Below, in pieces: positions 28,965 to 37,846 of a stretch of 64,000 nucleotides of DNA. The translations under genes and the position numbers were made by a program. The DNA comes from a virus: the IMG/VR virus record IMGVR_UViG_3300032242_003148, positions 1 to 64,000 of that record; one strand, 5' to 3'. Each line of letters begins with the position of its first letter. Positions within the stretch are counted from its first letter, which is position 1. Under the pieces are notes generated by a model. That model saw only the letters and a list, made by a program, of their open reading frames with translations. It had not been told where the DNA came from and ran no database searches.

Positions 28965-29561
28965 TCAGATCATGAACAACTTCTTATCAGTTCGCTCTCC
29001 GCGAATAAAATTCAGGAAAACCTGAACCATCATACCTGCAACTACCGTGGGCAGAGTGTGACTGATGTTTGATTCTTTCTCATGCTTCAACAAGCAACCA
29101 CCACGAATGTCATCGTTGGTGATATATTTTTTGAGCTCTTCTTCTGGTAGCTTTGAATTAAACAAGGCACCCTGGCGACTAGTGCAACGACCATCAATCC
29201 AGAAGTTCTTGTCTTTGTTCTGGAAGCTCCAGTTATATAGTGTGCGGCGGAATTCCATACTGTCCACACAGCTGAAGATAACATCATATTTCTTGAAGTC
29301 CTTCTCCTCCATGAACTTATTAATTCCGTTCACCACATAACGATCTTCTAGCACTTTTACCTTTGGCTTGCCCACATCATCAATCTTATAGTTTTGATGT
29401 AGTAGGTTAGAGGTATCGATGATGTCATTATCATAGATATCAACATCCACACCAGAGTAATCAAATTGCTTACGGTTAAAGCCGTAGTCAAATAGGATAC
29501 CCAATAAGTTTGAACCAATGCCTCCGGCACCGGCTATACCAATTTTTTTTAGTTTAGTCAT
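28965..29561 (-). CDS. ThiF/MoeB/E1-family adenylating enzyme
   Basis: GAGGIG, YD.D.ID.SNL..Q, G.PKV, SCVD and IDGR motifs; candidate catalytic Cys in GGCLL. Confidence 0.92.
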   Translation of the reverse strand: MTKLKKIGIAGAGGIGSNLLGILFDYGFNRKQFDYSGVDVDIYDNDIIDTSNLLHQNYKIDDVGKPKVKVLEDRYVVNGINKFMEEKDFKKYDVIFSCVDSMEFRRTLYNWSFQNKDKNFWIDGRCTSRQGALFNSKLPEEELKKYITNDDIRGGCLLKHEKESNISHTLPTVVAGMMVQVFLNFIRGERTDKKLFMI

Positions 29562-30018
29562 TATAGTTAGTTAGATATTGCAGTGTTTCTAGTCCCATTG
29601 TGAATGTGTGCAGATCTTTCTGCGCTGACCATTCAGAGCATGAGAATTCTCTGTGCTTGTTTGAATATATATAGTTATATTTGAACCCCTGGAATAACTT
29701 GTCGTAATCCAGTTGGCTTGGCATAGGAGAGAACTGTGGGTGAGTATGAAAACTACCATACATGTTCCAGCCTTTATTCATCATAGGGATAATCTTTTCC
29801 CCGAACTCTTTATGGTCTGTTTCATATAAACCGTAAGCAACAGGCTCTCCCTCATGAACGTTTTTAACTTTTACGAAGATAAAGTCCTTATTGTCTCTGG
29901 TTAATATGATACCACCCTCCTCCTCGTTATCCCGGCGACACTCTATAGCGGCACCGGTGATAACTCTGGAGATACGTGTATTTATTTCTTTTATTACGCG
30001 CATGGAATTAATTGCCAT
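29554..30018 (-). CDS. JAB/MPN (JAMM) metalloprotease
   Basis: Complete JAMM motif E..G...HTHP.....PS..D; overlaps the E1 start. Confidence 0.9.
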   Translation of the reverse strand: MAINSMRVIKEINTRISRVITGAAIECRRDNEEEGGIILTRDNKDFIFVKVKNVHEGEPVAYGLYETDHKEFGEKIIPMMNKGWNMYGSFHTHPQFSPMPSQLDYDKLFQGFKYNYIYSNKHREFSCSEWSAQKDLHTFTMGLETLQYLTNYND

Positions 30019-30662
30019 TTCTCGGCGATCTTCTTTGTTAGTAATAGGTCGTTCCTGAGATAGGCTTTGGCCGCCTCAGTATCCCGCTCGTAGGTCTGAT
30101 AGAATAACTCTTCAGACTTATCCTTGTCACCTACTTCAAGGTGCAATGCTAGCTCCTTGAGGCTGGTGTAGTCCTTTCTACGGCAATCCCACATAGCGGC
30201 AAGATCAATAGATCCAGAGTCATATGCAAAACCGCCATCTGTACGGAAGAACTTAGTAAATAGGTTTTTACCATACTTCAATCCCCTGCGGCAAAGGAAT
30301 GGAATATCAAAGTTATTACCGTTAAAAGTAATAATGTTATACGCCCTACCTCCAGGCATGCCGTCAGCTCCGTCAAAGTAGACCAATAGGTCACTGAAGA
30401 TATTTATGAGTTTTTCCTCACTCATACCACAGTATAACTCAGGTTCTTCTTTGCCTATCTCCCAAATACCAATAGCACAGACCTTAGAAGTTAATGCAGA
30501 TAGTGTGCACTTATCGTAGAAGCTAGCTTCTTTACTCCTCAAGTCTTCTGCTACCTTAACAGGGTCTTTTAGCCTGCTATCAGCCTTGAACTCTGGTATG
30601 AATGGCGCTATCTCCTCTTTGGAAAGAGGAGCCGTTTCTATATCTATAATGTATGTGTTCAT
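29994..30662 (-). CDS. DnaQ/PolB-type 3'-5' exonuclease
   Basis: DIET (ExoI), FNG..FDIPFL (ExoII) and YLRND (ExoIII). Confidence 0.85.
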   Translation of the reverse strand: MNTYIIDIETAPLSKEEIAPFIPEFKADSRLKDPVKVAEDLRSKEASFYDKCTLSALTSKVCAIGIWEIGKEEPELYCGMSEEKLINIFSDLLVYFDGADGMPGGRAYNIITFNGNNFDIPFLCRRGLKYGKNLFTKFFRTDGGFAYDSGSIDLAAMWDCRRKDYTSLKELALHLEVGDKDKSEELFYQTYERDTEAAKAYLRNDLLLTKKIAEKWQLIPCA

Positions 30663-30722: not shown

Positions 30723-30941
30723 TTACTCAGAGTATCCTCCGTAGTAATCATTATTAGCCATATTGGTTTTTACTCTTACTGCGTCTGATCTGCCTTCTGT
30801 TAGTCTGTGGAATATATTTAATATTCTTATGTATCCCTTATCTGTTTTAACAGAAGATTTACCAAGTCCTGTTACCTTCTGCCTATGATTAAACTTAAAC
30901 TCTAACTGCACTGTTTTTTTATTTTTTTGGGTGCTTTGCAT
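30723..30941 (-). CDS. Hypothetical protein
   Basis: 72 aa ORF filling a gap. Confidence 0.5.
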   Translation of the reverse strand: MQSTQKNKKTVQLEFKFNHRQKVTGLGKSSVKTDKGYIRILNIFHRLTEGRSDAVRVKTNMANNDYYGGYSE

Positions 30942-30964: not shown

Positions 30965-33037
30965 TTAGGCAGTGAGGTCTAACTGGTCAATTATATCCGC
31001 CACATCATCGCGATCAGGCTGATAGTCATTATGGGCATTCTCATACTGCGGCTGAGCTTCTCCCTTTAGTGTGCCTATTTTGCCCTGCATAACAGAGTCA
31101 TTTTTCAACACATATAGCCTGGCTGCGATATCATCATAGCCAGCACCACGGAAGTGATTATCGTTAACAATACAGCGATATTGCTTTGATTCAAAGTCGT
31201 ATACCTTTGCGTTCTCAACAACTATCGCATATGTTCTAAGACTACCCTTGACCTTGTAGGCTTTCTTGCCCAGGAACTCTATCATTTCTGCTCCTGTTAC
31301 CTTCACAGCACTATCAAGGAAGTTTTTGCTCCTCTCAATAGATTGCTTCTTAGCCTGGTCAGCAACATCAATGATCTTCTTGATGTCATCTGACGTTACC
31401 GTGGTGGTTGTGATGGAATTTTCTGTGCCATCTTCATTTTTTGTAACTGTGGTGAACGTGCAGCAATCCCTGATGGCTCTTGCTAACTCTTCTCTGGCCC
31501 AGCGCCAATTACGGGTTTTGCTAGCCTTGTTACTCCAACGGTCATTGGTTTTCTTGTTAATTGTATCAATTCTAGTAATCAATTTACCAAGACTAACCTT
31601 ACCACCATCATCTCCCTCTACCCTGATCTTGATGCATTTTGCAGCAGGATCAATCCAGAACTTAACAGGTGGAGCAGCAGAGCTGGCTACAGGGCTGTTA
31701 TATTCATCGCGGGTTATAAGGCTATGCATTTTAACAGGCAAGCCATTTGCTATAGCATCATGCCAGCGTATGCTCATTTTGCTGATTCTTCGCACAAACA
31801 GATTATATTCATCCAGGTTGTGATGACAGCTTGCACGATACATAACCTGCTGAACCTCAACAGCATTTATTCTTTTGCCGTTGATCTTTCTGGCTCCATG
31901 TTTGTTCTTGGTAACCTGCACATCAAATCCATTGATTTTAACCAATGGGAATGTATATGTTGCATCGTTAACTTCTTGGGCGTCAACTATATCCTCAAAG
32001 GCATTTGTATAAGTCTCTATGATGGTATAGATGTCAAACTCACCACCAAAGTTGAGTTTTTCGTATAGCACATCAAGTAGGTTATCGCCCTCTATGCTGA
32101 TGTTCTCATACACAGCTGACTTCTTGGTAAGCATGATATTGTTGATGCTGGCTTTTTCAATTTCGCCGGCCTTTAACTTATTGATTACCAGCAGAGAAGT
32201 GTTATTTTGATAATCCTTCTCTATGAACCCTCTGAGCTCATCATACTTACCACGTAGCTTAGGTGGTAGCTTCTTCTCCATTTTCAATCGCATCATCTGC
32301 GCTTCTGTGGAGTGTACAAAGCTGTTATTTTTTAGCATTGTGCATAGCTTAGGATGTAGTGATGCCAGCAGATAGATATGCATTGTGTGTATATCTAGCT
32401 CATTGGTTATAACAATATATCTTTCCTCTTTACCTGATAGGGAAGTATTTGAGAATCCCAGAATAAAGAATCCTTTATCTAGGTAATCATATATAGCGTC
32501 ATCATCACGCCCTATAACAAGTATTTTATTATTTGTATGGGCAGTAGTAACAATCCTATAGGTGTGATTATTCTCCATTACCTCTAGTGGGCTATTCTGA
32601 ATAACATAAGGAGTACGGATTGTATCCGGCATGTCCTTTGGAATAAATCTCATGGTTTTGAACCGCTTGGCAAGTTCAGGGCCATTAGCTTTGTTTATCT
32701 TTTTAGCAGTTCCCTTCTTTTCAGATTCTCCATACTTTAGGGAATCATAGAATTTATGCCCTGGTGTTCCGGAGTTATTCTTATTTGCGAACAAATTTCC
32801 AAGCTCTAGTCCGTTTGTGTTTATTTGTGCTACCTTGGCGTAATTCCATGCAGCTTGAAGTGTTTTGAACTTCAGCTTGTGAATCTTCATGGTGTAGGCA
32901 TTATCATGTGGGAATGGCTTACCATGATTCACTTTTTGCCAGTCGATCTCGAATTCCACAGCACCCTCCGCAGGGAATGCTTTTAACTTATTGAATAAAT
33001 TAATGTATGATTTAAATTTTTTAATAGATAGTTCCAT
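30965..33037 (-). CDS. 690 aa unknown protein; candidate E2-like carrier or target of the Ubl system
   Basis: Directly downstream of the Ubl gene. C-terminal strand-rich segment KVKGSLRTYAI...YRCIV...DDIAARL..LKND contains a lone Cys. Function is inferred. Confidence 0.45.
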   Translation of the reverse strand: MELSIKKFKSYINLFNKLKAFPAEGAVEFEIDWQKVNHGKPFPHDNAYTMKIHKLKFKTLQAAWNYAKVAQINTNGLELGNLFANKNNSGTPGHKFYDSLKYGESEKKGTAKKINKANGPELAKRFKTMRFIPKDMPDTIRTPYVIQNSPLEVMENNHTYRIVTTAHTNNKILVIGRDDDAIYDYLDKGFFILGFSNTSLSGKEERYIVITNELDIHTMHIYLLASLHPKLCTMLKNNSFVHSTEAQMMRLKMEKKLPPKLRGKYDELRGFIEKDYQNNTSLLVINKLKAGEIEKASINNIMLTKKSAVYENISIEGDNLLDVLYEKLNFGGEFDIYTIIETYTNAFEDIVDAQEVNDATYTFPLVKINGFDVQVTKNKHGARKINGKRINAVEVQQVMYRASCHHNLDEYNLFVRRISKMSIRWHDAIANGLPVKMHSLITRDEYNSPVASSAAPPVKFWIDPAAKCIKIRVEGDDGGKVSLGKLITRIDTINKKTNDRWSNKASKTRNWRWAREELARAIRDCCTFTTVTKNEDGTENSITTTTVTSDDIKKIIDVADQAKKQSIERSKNFLDSAVKVTGAEMIEFLGKKAYKVKGSLRTYAIVVENAKVYDFESKQYRCIVNDNHFRGAGYDDIAARLYVLKNDSVMQGKIGTLKGEAQPQYENAHNDYQPDRDDVADIIDQLDLTA

Positions 33038-33068: not shown

Positions 33069-33100
33069 GTGGGAGAAGGGAAATTAATCCCCTCTCCCAC
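33069..33100 (-). terminator. Intrinsic terminator after the Ubl gene
   Basis: GTGGGAGAGGGGA-TTAATT-TCCCTTCTCCCAC followed by TTCTATTTT. Confidence 0.8.
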
Positions 33101-33121: not shown

Positions 33122-33385
33122 TTACTTGCTGCCGCCAACAAGAGTTCCAGAAAGAACAATGTTGGTATCCTCAGCTTTACCAAGACGAAGAGCGAGCTTC
33201 TCCTTGTTCTTGTCTGAGGTGACTTCTCCACCATCAAACTCGAAGAGCTGACCGTCGATCCATACCCAGTGGGCGTGTGAGGCCACCTTTTCGGTGATTG
33301 CGGTTACAGCCTGATCCAGGGTCTGGTCAGCGAGTTCAGTGTGTCCGGTGTTATCGGAGATTTTAACGATGTATTTCTTGTCCAT
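33122..33385 (-). CDS. Ubiquitin-like (beta-grasp) protein precursor
   Basis: 87 aa; pattern of N-terminal hairpin, helix, VWIDG and final strand IVLSGTLVGG, followed by an SK extension; E1 and JAB genes lie downstream. Confidence 0.75.
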   Translation of the reverse strand: MDKKYIVKISDNTGHTELADQTLDQAVTAITEKVASHAHWVWIDGQLFEFDGGEVTSDKNKEKLALRLGKAEDTNIVLSGTLVGGSK

Positions 33386-35158: not shown

Positions 35159-37846
35159 TTAATGGCTCCAGTCCCATGATTGGGTCTGATTGTTCCAAAC
35201 TGTTTCTTTCTCGAAGAATTTCTTCTTACCTTTCCATCTGTCACTAACAACTAACTCACAACCTAGTTTATCTCCTGTGGCGATTCTTGTGTAATCACAG
35301 AAGACATGTCTTAGTATCTCAGGAAGATAGTTATCTTTCATAAGATCTTTGTGAGCAATCCAGTAGTTAGCATCATGTACCACATTAACAGGATAAATAT
35401 ATTTCATCCAGAGGCCCTCACTCTTTAGGAATTTTCTGATGTTCACAGAAGCATACCACATGAACAACGCCAATTCAGAAGCCACAGGAAAAGCTAAACT
35501 CTCATTCAGCCAACCTGCCTTGATTCCGAAATTGTCTGTTTTTTCATATGATAACTGCATACCTCTGGCATTAGATATTCTTTCGTAAGCGTTAACCTCA
35601 GCATTACATTCTTCTCTATACCCCATGTATGTACTATATCTCTTCCAGGTTTCCAAAGCATATTGAATCAGCTCTAGCGGAACATGTAATCCGTTTTCAG
35701 CGTAGATCTCAGCCTGAATAGGAATTGCGGCATAGTCCAGCCCTGCAGTATAAGAAACACGAAATGTGATACTCTTTGCGATAACATATTTAGAAACATC
35801 TTTCTTGGATAACCCAGGGTCTTGGAAGTATTCTCGCATCTTGGTTTGATGGAAATTTCCTGCCCTGATATCCTTGATAAACGCTTCATCCTTGCTAAGG
35901 AATGCCATAATTGCAAGGTCTGCACCTGCAATGTCTAGCTCTACCCAATGATAATCCTGACTACCGGAGTAGAATATATTCCTGATGTTGTCTGGTAGCT
36001 TACTGTTGTGATTAGCTTGTTCATCCTTGGTCATTAATGAATAACCAGGTACGAAGATATTAGGGATGTGAGCCAACACCTTTGATGCAGGATTTTGGAC
36101 GTTTGGAGAGCTAGATGCTCGGAAGTTTTTAAGAAGCTCAAAGAAGCTTGCATGTACTCTTCCGTCATTAGCAATCGCCGCCCAATAACTCTGCTTTAGT
36201 GGTTCATCATCATCGCCATCCTCTAACTCTGATTCATCCATGACCACACCTTTCTTGGATAAGAACTTAGTAGCGAATACTCCTATTCTGGAAATATTCA
36301 ACAATAGTTCTACCGCCTTGTGCTTGACTTTTAGATCTTCAGAGTCGTTCTCCTCCATATCCTCCTCTAGTTCGAACTTGATGGTGGATAGGGATTTACC
36401 ATTTGTGCTAGGTGAGAATAGCCTTTGTGTTTGGGGGCTCTGCTTCTCGTACCATACTCTAGGCTTTGGTGACTTTCCTGCTTTTGTATAGTATGCAGGA
36501 GGTAACGCCAAAGTACTGAATAAGAATTCTTTCTTTTGCAGTGAAGAGTTAGGATTGAACCCCTTGATACCAAAGTGGTTATCCATAAAGGTATCCATCT
36601 CCTCTCTCAAGCTGTTATATTTATTCAAATATTTATCAGTGATCTCATTTAATACATCAAGGTCTATGGGTATGCCGGTAAGCTCCATATCCAGGAAGTA
36701 ATTTGTGAGAGGTAGATAAACACCGTCATAATAACCCTTTAGCTCTTTTGGGAAACCCTCACGCATTCTTAAACACGCTTCACGATGAGCCACAGCATCA
36801 CCAGCACAATAATGATAATATGTGTCAGGTTCAAAGAACTTCATCTTTGCTAATGCTGCCTTTGGCAACTTATGCTCTTTCATCTTACGATAGAAAGGAA
36901 CATAGTATGGCTCATAGTTAGTAAACTTCTTAATGCCTGTTTCTAGGCCCTTGGCCATTCTAGAGTCAAAGAAAGCCACTGCCTTCATACCATCAAACCC
37001 TAGAGTCTCATCCGCTAGTTTAAACCCTCTATAGGTCAACCTGATATCGTCAGCGCGTATATTCCAGCCTAGCCTATCTGCTTTAGGATGCTCTAGAATA
37101 AGCTTCATGGTATCTAGTAGCTCACGGTTCTCTGTTACACCATCCTTGGATATGTTAAGAACCACGGCCACATGCTTTTCGCAAGAGTATTGAAACTCAT
37201 ACATCACCTCGTCATCAGTGAACTTACTCCCATACCACTCAGCATCATAACCAATAGAAAACATTTCCCTGGATATATAGTCTTTTAGTATGGCTATATT
37301 CTCTTCAGGACTATCCACTATCTTGTATGTATACTCTTGGTACTGGAGATTATTATCCACTGCTTTTTTGGCTAGCATGAATATATCTCTAAACTCAGGA
37401 CGTTTTGTAGGGTCCTGAACTGTGACCATTCCTGGTGAATAATTAGCTAGTAGCTTACCGTATGGGGAATCTATGATTTCGCCGAGGTAGTCTCCTACCT
37501 TCATATTGGTTTTCATGATTCTCTTGAATACTTCAGCGCCTAGACTAATGATTAGCTGTGGTTTGATTTCTTCTATCTCCTTATCCAGCTTTTCACTCCA
37601 GAATTCTATATCTTCTGCTGGTGGCTTTGGCTTGCTACCTATGCCATTTCTTACCATAGCAGTGAAGTAGCATTCTTCTACTGGTATCTCTGCCTCTTCC
37701 AGGGCATCTAATACTTCGTTGGCTGATCCCCCAGACCTACCAAAATGAGCAACCTGAAGGTCGTCCTTGGTGGGATGGGAGAATACGATCATATATTTCG
37801 CCCCCGGTCCTCCTCTGGGTTTTACTTCTACTTTTGTGTCGCTCAT
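35159..37846 (-). CDS. Family A DNA polymerase with N-terminal UDG-like domain and 3'-5' exonuclease (SPO1-like architecture)
   Basis: UDG-like EI..IKP.LIISLG; exonuclease motifs DAE, NIRAD and YCAGD; polymerase motifs RASSSPNVQN, A (DIAGADL), B (AKSITF...Y) and C (VHD). Confidence 0.9.
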   Translation of the reverse strand: MSDTKVEVKPRGGPGAKYMIVFSHPTKDDLQVAHFGRSGGSANEVLDALEEAEIPVEECYFTAMVRNGIGSKPKPPAEDIEFWSEKLDKEIEEIKPQLIISLGAEVFKRIMKTNMKVGDYLGEIIDSPYGKLLANYSPGMVTVQDPTKRPEFRDIFMLAKKAVDNNLQYQEYTYKIVDSPEENIAILKDYISREMFSIGYDAEWYGSKFTDDEVMYEFQYSCEKHVAVVLNISKDGVTENRELLDTMKLILEHPKADRLGWNIRADDIRLTYRGFKLADETLGFDGMKAVAFFDSRMAKGLETGIKKFTNYEPYYVPFYRKMKEHKLPKAALAKMKFFEPDTYYHYCAGDAVAHREACLRMREGFPKELKGYYDGVYLPLTNYFLDMELTGIPIDLDVLNEITDKYLNKYNSLREEMDTFMDNHFGIKGFNPNSSLQKKEFLFSTLALPPAYYTKAGKSPKPRVWYEKQSPQTQRLFSPSTNGKSLSTIKFELEEDMEENDSEDLKVKHKAVELLLNISRIGVFATKFLSKKGVVMDESELEDGDDDEPLKQSYWAAIANDGRVHASFFELLKNFRASSSPNVQNPASKVLAHIPNIFVPGYSLMTKDEQANHNSKLPDNIRNIFYSGSQDYHWVELDIAGADLAIMAFLSKDEAFIKDIRAGNFHQTKMREYFQDPGLSKKDVSKYVIAKSITFRVSYTAGLDYAAIPIQAEIYAENGLHVPLELIQYALETWKRYSTYMGYREECNAEVNAYERISNARGMQLSYEKTDNFGIKAGWLNESLAFPVASELALFMWYASVNIRKFLKSEGLWMKYIYPVNVVHDANYWIAHKDLMKDNYLPEILRHVFCDYTRIATGDKLGCELVVSDRWKGKKKFFEKETVWNNQTQSWDWSH

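Follow-up and report, generated by a model that had tools for sequence, protein, structure and literature searches.

A phage orphan protein with an invariant cysteine, linked to ubiquitin-like, E1 and JAB genes: a candidate divergent E2-like carrier

The 690-aa protein considered here, called X690, is encoded at positions 30965 to 33037 of a window of 64,000 nucleotides (positions 1 to 64,000 of IMG/VR record IMGVR_UViG_3300032242_003148), which belongs to the 165.6-kb record of an uncultured lake phage. Its gene is linked to those of a ubiquitin-like protein (Ubl) that carries a Gly-Gly (GG) motif, a JAB-type protease and a minimal ThiF-type E1. Across three deeply diverged phage clades, the constant set is the GG Ubl, the minimal E1 and the Cys domain of X690 and its relatives (the X family). 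We give about even chances to the reading that X690 combines a divergent E2-like thioester carrier with a large targeting region, and that it is the Ubl-handling part of a phage Ubl system. An earlier note, made from the sequence alone, had raised this possibility for the 690-aa open reading frame (ORF) that directly follows the Ubl gene. The frame is real and lies 84 nt downstream of the Ubl gene, and its 37 close homologues and 470 cluster representatives mean that it is not a chance ORF. The main features are the following.

30965-33037, minus strand: X690, an orphan multi-domain alpha/beta protein of 690 aa with an ATG start
31058-31945, minus strand: conserved core of the X superfamily, residues 365-660, common to the short forms and including the RINxxE...RASC(404) motif
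31058-31393, minus strand: C-terminal Cys domain, residues 549-660, weakly UBC/UEV/RWD-like, with a sub-threshold DUF7737 match
31172-31174, minus strand: codon of Cys622, the putative thioester site, invariant, in QYRCIV
31826-31828, minus strand: codon of Cys404, the second invariant Cys of the long forms (RASCHH), from the alignments
32477-32584, minus strand: N-terminal motifs, X690 residues 152-187, ExxxGxxTYR (E152, R161) and YDYLDKGF (Y183-F190)
33122-33385, minus strand: Ubl of 87 aa, C-terminal end LVGG-SK, with Gly84-Gly85 invariant
29554-30018, minus strand: JAB/JAMM metalloprotease of 154 aa, Prok-JAB E 7.5e-10, with the full E...HxH...S...D motif (H91, H93, S101, D104)
28965-29561, minus strand: minimal ThiF-type E1 of 198 aa without extra domains, ThiF E 2e-19, with GxGGxGS, D100, R105 and the invariant Cys156 (codon 29094-29096)

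Gene linkage and conservation of the X family

The close homologues, several of which lie on contigs of 150-190 kb, were found by a word-indexed search. A profile search over 1.84 billion cluster representatives gave the 470 representatives at E ≤ 1e-3, with 321 at E ≤ 1e-10, and all-against-all BLAST clustering placed the representatives in two large groups. The members found are phage or metagenome sequences only. The long forms have 630-790 aa, and there are also short forms of 383-486 aa, residues 87-393 of which align to X690 365-660 in a profile-profile comparison (hhalign, probability 98.7%, E 2.7e-16).

To follow conservation, we used three alignments, namely A1 with 30 close sequences, A2 with 38 distant ones (17-34% identical to X690) and A3 with 74 mixed ones. 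Cys622, whose conservation the earlier note had singled out as a check, is invariant in all three (n=30, 38 and 74), and its motif is retained in the shorter proteins of the third clade. Cys404 is likewise invariant, together with Cys622, in A1 and A2. The further invariant residues of A2 are R161, D187, E394, G432, L574, Y603, R640 and D647; no lysine is invariant there, so that a fixed lysine acceptor site is disfavoured. Conservation in the family is highest over the C-terminal 90 residues, and the signature C-[IV]-x9-G-x(0,1)-D-x4-R-x2-A-x2-N-D-x8-T is common to all three clades. In the N-terminal part, ExxxGxxTYR and YDYLDKGF are kept in group 1 as well as in group 2 (R161 and D187 without exception), and the short forms lack both motifs. 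From their sequence conservation, these two motifs point to a putative second functional site of the long forms.

The gene contexts were all drawn from IMG/VR loci. In group 1 (25 loci), to which the window belongs, the order is Ubl-X-JAB-E1, with an optional 72-aa ORF and an optional exonuclease gene between X and JAB. X, JAB and E1 are often translationally coupled, with gaps of -4 to +3 nt, and they abut or overlap where the inserts are missing. Since the group 1 phages share the whole replication module, the linkage in this group alone could be inherited gene order.

In group 2 (32 loci), the order is X-Ubl-JAB-E1. With the group 2 query P0115, the loci share 28-39% identity. Group 2 members are ~17-21% identical to X690 in A2, and the group as a whole is put at 20-30%. 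Their surroundings lack the neighbour genes of the window, apart from a single locus with PolA and two loci with the exonuclease. In L034 (4689-14952), the one group 2 locus that was inspected with Pfam, a class II (B12-dependent) ribonucleotide reductase flanks the cassette on one side, and on the other there are a metallophosphatase, a sigma-70-type factor and a different, 608-aa PolA. The cassette is thus again found in a nucleotide-metabolism and replication neighbourhood, with genes unrelated to those of the window. A ~655-aa ORF resembling the PolA of L034 is present upstream of X in L030, L037 and L044.

The X protein of group 3 is the short form, with Ubl and E1 genes dispersed over ~4 kb. 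The Ubl has 67-85 aa, ends in GG plus 0-2 residues and is encoded 1-3 kb upstream of the short X. In L123, the only group 3 locus scanned with Pfam, a zinc-ribbon/helix-turn-helix (HTH) protein and a small zinc-finger protein are encoded between the short form and E1.

A reverse test was anchored on E1. It gave 215 related viral loci in IMG/VR, of which 80 were kept, 7 of them being cut upstream. In every one of the 73 loci with enough upstream flank (73/73), an X-family gene was found within ~3 kb. JAB is present in most loci; the profile gave no JAB in some group 2 loci or in the group 3 cassette. Two group 2-like loci (L116 and L121) retain X, Ubl and E1 without JAB, and these three are therefore the core. 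The link of homologues to Ubl, E1 and JAB genes on which the earlier note had set weight is thus borne out, with Ubl and E1 in every informative locus, JAB in most, permuted orders and unrelated contexts. Gene order, spacing and genomic neighbours all differ among the three clades, and mere synteny is effectively excluded as the source of the X-Ubl-E1 association.

Some details of the third clade can be added here. The order in L123 (3433-8678), seen also in L120, L127, L134 and L105, is Ubl, three small ORFs, the ~400-aa short X, a 289-aa TFIIB-type zinc-ribbon plus HTH protein, a 140-aa protein and E1. The 140-aa protein has weak zinc-finger/RING-like matches (Prok-RING_4 E 0.007, zf-C3HC4_3 E 0.03), and to judge from these matches the small zinc-finger protein adjoining E1 could be an E3-like partner. 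Downstream in L123 there are a 179-aa protein with a weak Prok-JAB match (E 0.01) and a GroEL-type chaperonin.

The X family has little connection to annotated sequences. No Pfam family is matched by X690 above the cut-off, and PHROGs, NCBIfam and PADLOC provide none for it or for the Ubl. No match to X690 was obtained with tblastn against 50,697 GenBank phage records, none with the X-family profile against the PDB sequences, and no usable one in the ESM Atlas, which contains no model of it. In BFVD, three viral proteins of 416-452 aa without annotation were matched (E 5e-8), and these are candidate relatives of the short forms. Two pattern scans of ~185,000 prokaryote genomes gave no homologue, the patterns being narrow, so that absence is not proven by them. 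A search for a stand-alone C-terminal domain returned only fragments on contigs shorter than 3 kb and one 369-aa protein on a 7.4-kb contig, and there is no evidence of a free mini-domain in the close relatives. A 110-aa fragment of the family is labelled "negative regulator of replication initiation" by one database source. Full-text searches of the literature returned neither a paper on DUF7737 nor a description of this phage cassette.

The C-terminal cysteine domain and the E2 question

The earlier note had described the C-terminal ~110 residues as several short strands, a lone Cys (QYRCIV) and a helix, and the AlphaFold models confirm this description. The elements are a helix at 549-581, strands at 584-588, 591-597, 602-606 and 612-614, the Cys622 loop and a helix at 635-645 (IAARLYVLKND). 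The full-length model has a pLDDT of 84.6, and the domain-only model (540-670) has a pLDDT of 89.9 and a pTM of 0.79. In the latter, the first helix has 33 residues, Cys622 lies 8 residues past the last strand and the next helix follows 13 residues later. Cys622 is the sole Cys in the last 110 residues, and in both models it is located between strand 612-614 and helix 635-645. In E2s, the catalytic cysteine lies between the last strand and the next helix, so the placement of Cys622 is as in E2s.

The domain model was compared exhaustively with 48,161 PDB representatives. By our count, about 33 of the top 50 matches are E2, UEV or RWD chains. The best one is the Vps23 UEV domain, with Z 4.6 and a root-mean-square deviation (rmsd) of 3.5 Å over 83 aligned residues, followed among others by VPS37A (Z 4.3), Tsg101 (Z 4.2), Ubc9 (Z 4.0) and E2S (Z 3.9). 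Bacterial E2s are matched as well, namely 9eav_D, which we take to be the Bub E2 (Z 3.8), Cap2 (7to3_A, Z 3.1) and CdnG-E2 (8hsb_B, Z 3.0). With the model of the whole 690-aa protein, the same enrichment in E2, UEV and RWD folds is seen, always on residues 560-660. Frataxin, the top Foldseek candidate, scores lower on rescoring (Z 2.1), and the E2/UEV/RWD families reappear there.

The only recurrent link at the sequence level is to DUF7737 (PF24879). The match is sub-threshold, with at best 17.2 bits against a gathering value of 27, and the E-value is 0.005 on the domain and at best 7e-4 among the relatives. It is nevertheless found in 32 of 74 X-family members, on the same stretch in each (from the helix end over the strands into the Cys region; profile positions 10-62 of 103), and no other Pfam family is matched by more than two of the 74.

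It is important to state what weighs against an E2-like carrier. All the structural Z-scores are ≤4.6, with rmsd values of 3.5-4.5 Å, and a Z below 8 may reflect a common arrangement only. In Foldseek searches of the PDB, the whole model drew nothing above noise, and the rows listed for the domain model (frataxin and kinetochore proteins) were not significant. UQ_con (PF00179) matched neither X690 nor its 74 relatives (E ≤ 0.1 and E ≤ 10), nor the 165.6-kb record in six frames (E ≤ 1). The Prok-E2_A to E profiles (PF14457, PF14461, PF14459, PF14460, PF14462) likewise gave no match at E ≤ 1 in the phage record and none among the 74 relatives. The earlier statement that no recognisable E2 is encoded elsewhere thus holds for the whole record, and the lack of an HPN motif, also stated there, is seen again in residues 540-690. 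E1 is a bare adenylation domain of 198 aa without an E2-recruiting domain, like the E1s of E2-less systems (ThiF, MoeB, PRTRC, UbaA). Furthermore, since all relatives are from phages or metagenomes, co-inheritance in viral lineages adds to the linkage, although the permuted gene orders mean that it is not the whole cause. The proposal of the earlier note, a thioester carrier fused to a large targeting region, is the leading reading and has partial support.

From the observed gene linkage, invariant residues, intact JAB and E1 catalytic motifs and predicted order of secondary-structure elements, we infer every chemical step given here, as well as the identity of the targets. JAB would trim the residues after Gly-Gly where a tail exists, and it would probably also remove the tag again. 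The minimal E1 would adenylate the Ubl C-terminus and take the Ubl onto Cys156, from which it could pass to Cys622 in the divergent UBC-like (DUF7737-like) C-terminal domain of X690. The ~540-residue N-terminal part, with Cys404 and the ExxxGxxTYR and YDYLDKGF motifs, may select the targets or serve as a built-in E3-like stage. In both clades whose surroundings were checked, the cassette is embedded among genes for replication and nucleotide metabolism or lies close to them, which suggests that the targets could be replication/repair proteins or host defence proteins.

A wider version of this proposal is that the DUF7737-like Cys domain constitutes a new, very divergent branch of E2-like carriers, common to large environmental phages (in long and short X proteins alike) and to bacterial DUF4132 proteins, of which the Deinococcus member is induced by DNA damage, and that the phages run their own tagging pathway. 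We hold this version only tentatively and consider it rather improbable.

Partner proteins and surroundings in the window

In the Ubl family, G14, W40, G84 and G85 are invariant (alignment A6). The tail after GG has 0-9 residues in group 1, and in group 2 there is mostly none, the protein ending exactly at GG. JAB is retained in most of the group 2 phages with a Ubl that needs no trimming, which suggests deconjugation and not maturation alone. The only NCBIfam match of JAB is the desampylase, at E 1e-4, far below the cut-off.

The nucleotide-binding and catalytic residues of E1 are kept, and Cys156 is invariant in 41 sequences (alignment A5); it lies approximately at the position of the MoeB/ThiF loop cysteine. 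The best NCBIfam match of E1 is the PRTRC-system ThiF (TIGR03736, E 1.2e-13). ThiF is matched as well, and MoeB and the SAMP-activating UbaA more weakly, all of them below the cut-off. The only plasmid matches of E1 in tblastn are PRTRC ThiF genes on Vibrio plasmids, adjoining "PRTRC system protein C". Such a Vibrio cassette was considered as a source of comparators for E2s and set aside, a single sequence being too little for a useful profile. In L082 (5682-7456), which is the same phage as L011, the E1 gene is in pieces of 48 aa and 157 aa that lie ~1.15 kb apart, while the relatives are intact. The gene looks as if it had been interrupted by an intron, a homing endonuclease or another insert of this sort.

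We have also predicted the complex of E1, Ubl 1-85 and the X690 C-terminal domain. The median score was 0.01 (runs of 0.36, 0.01 and 0.00), which weighs neither for nor against binding.

The genes of the window between ~20 and 52 kb are all on the minus strand. In the direction of transcription, the order starts with a family A DNA polymerase, a GP88-family protein, a 243-aa ORF, the 87-aa Ubl, a hairpin with a T-tract, and X690. Downstream of X690 come a 72-aa ORF, a 222-aa RNase H-fold exonuclease, the 154-aa Prok-JAB protein, the 198-aa ThiF-type E1, two ORFs and a RecA-like protein. Three of these features have not been listed above.

33069-33100, minus strand: GC-rich hairpin of 13 bp with a T-tract behind it, separating the Ubl gene from X690 and resembling an intrinsic terminator
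30723-30941, minus strand: 72-aa basic ORF, a facultative cassette insert, in the closest relatives only (5/25 group 1 loci)
29994-30662, minus strand: DnaQ-like exonuclease of 222 aa with an RNase H fold, optional between X690 and JAB (12/25 group 1 loci)

The 72-aa ORF was considered as a second Ubl and rejected, because its GG is not conserved among the relatives. The 895-aa family A polymerase (35159-37846) is the best-conserved neighbour, with 65-86% identity in group 1. Among the GenBank phages, its nearest relatives share only ~24% identity with it across half of its length, and the phage therefore belongs to a lineage without a cultured relative in that collection.

Alternative explanations and known systems

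X690 could be a DNA replication or repair protein that is independent of the Ubl genes, the genes being neighbours by inherited order in one lineage. It does sit within a conserved replication/repair module (PolA, GP88, and RecA-like, RuvC-like and glycosylase proteins), and the replication-initiation label on the 110-aa family fragment points the same way. However, the X-Ubl-E1 association survives a changed order, changed neighbours, the shortening of X to ~400 aa and divergence between clades down to 13-30% identity, and an X-family gene is missing from none of the 73 informative E1 loci. We therefore regard this explanation as very improbable.

The main rival, which we consider less likely than the carrier, is that X690 is the dedicated partner of a system that has no E2; the earlier note had likewise named a dedicated substrate as the other option. 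In a sampylation- or urmylation-like variant, E1 alone would activate the Ubl, and X690 would be its main acceptor or a substrate adaptor. In a sulfur-carrier-like variant, X690 would receive the (thio)carboxylate of the Ubl in an active site formed by the invariant Cys, Asp, Arg and Asn residues, the part played by MoaE, ThiG and CysM towards MoaD, ThiS and CysO. The minimal ThiF-type E1 fits such a system, its nearest named relatives being the PRTRC ThiF and ThiF (E 1e-13) with MoeB and UbaA behind them, and so do the desampylase as the sole NCBIfam match of JAB, the weak support for an E2-like fold and the missing E2 profile match. The combination of JAB, a GG-tailed Ubl and E1 also occurs in the sulfur-carrier pathways CysO/Mec+ and QbsE/QbsD, which we count in its favour. 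On the other side, X has no invariant lysine, its invariant nucleophiles are cysteines, and a Cys-bound Ubl is carrier chemistry. JAB is kept where the Ubl needs no trimming, and the lists of structural matches are rich in folds of the UBC superfamily and not in synthase folds. In the three clades inspected, neither the cassette nor its neighbours contained a rhodanese, cysteine desulfurase, PP-loop protein or known synthase, although such factors could be supplied by the host. The specific option that X690 is a TtuA/Ncs6-type thiolase or another known sulfur enzyme was rejected, as no such Pfam family is matched.

The comparison with E2-independent systems can be made more specific. The cassette resembles SAMP/UbaA/HvJAMM1, TtuB/TtuC and Urm1/Uba4 in its minimal E1, GG Ubl and JAMM deconjugase, with the weak desampylase and UbaA matches noted above. 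In those systems, however, there is no obligatory fourth protein, whereas here an X-family protein is encoded beside every informative E1. With ThiS/ThiF, MoaD/MoeB and CysO, the cassette shares the GG Ubl and the adenylating ThiF-type E1, but it differs from these sulfur-carrier systems in that no sulfur donor or known synthase is present among the scanned cassette and neighbour proteins of the three clades.

Returning to X690 as an E2-like carrier, its domain shares with canonical E2/UBC, UEV and RWD domains the order of an N-terminal helix, a four-strand meander, a Cys loop and a helix, and its local motif of hydrophobic-Cys-hydrophobic-Asp (ICID or ICIVD) recalls the ICLD of E2s. It differs from canonical E2s in that it has no HPN motif and no UQ_con match, in its much longer first helix and in having only 1-2 short helices after the Cys. 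The conserved polar residues (N625/D626 and N646/D647) lie downstream of Cys622 and not upstream.

In Bil operons, the gene order is Ubl, E2, JAB, E1. The phage cassette is similar in having a GG Ubl, a JAB-type protease, a ThiF-type E1 with a conserved Cys and a Cys-bearing fourth protein at the position of the E2. These operons (BilABCD) are the closest known systems, together with the related CBASS Cap2/Cap3 and Bub pathways (PMC10557695, PMC10097602, PMC11601596). A further likeness is that the X domain matches the presumed Bub E2, the E2 domain of Cap2, CdnG-E2 and a chain of the Bil E1-E2-Ubl complex, with Z 2.7-3.8. On the other hand, the phage E1 is half the size of the E1s of these systems and lacks their extra domains. 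The context differs as well, being a phage replication module here and bacterial defence islands in the case of Bil, and there is no PADLOC match and no BilB-like E2. As to DUF7737, X690 lacks the DUF4132 region, and all the X matches are below the curated cut-off. A DUF4132 protein, DRA0166, is encoded in the Deinococcus operon drA0165-drA0166, which is regulated by DdrO and strongly induced on DdrO depletion (bioRxiv 10.1101/2021.07.07.451423).

Finally, the cassette has a bearing on the biology of large phages. It would be the mirror case of host systems, being a compact set of Ubl, E1 and JAB in many large uncultured phages, with an obligatory fourth component that represents a sizeable orphan family without annotation. 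To our knowledge, the bacterial Ubl conjugation systems characterised so far (CBASS Cap2/Cap3, Bil and Bub) serve to defend the host against phages. If Cys622 proves to carry the Ubl, the X family would be a new E2-like lineage and would provide the first functional handle on DUF7737, and, should the link between DUF7737 and DUF4132 hold, a functional handle on DUF4132 proteins too. It would then also mean that phages tag proteins during infection.

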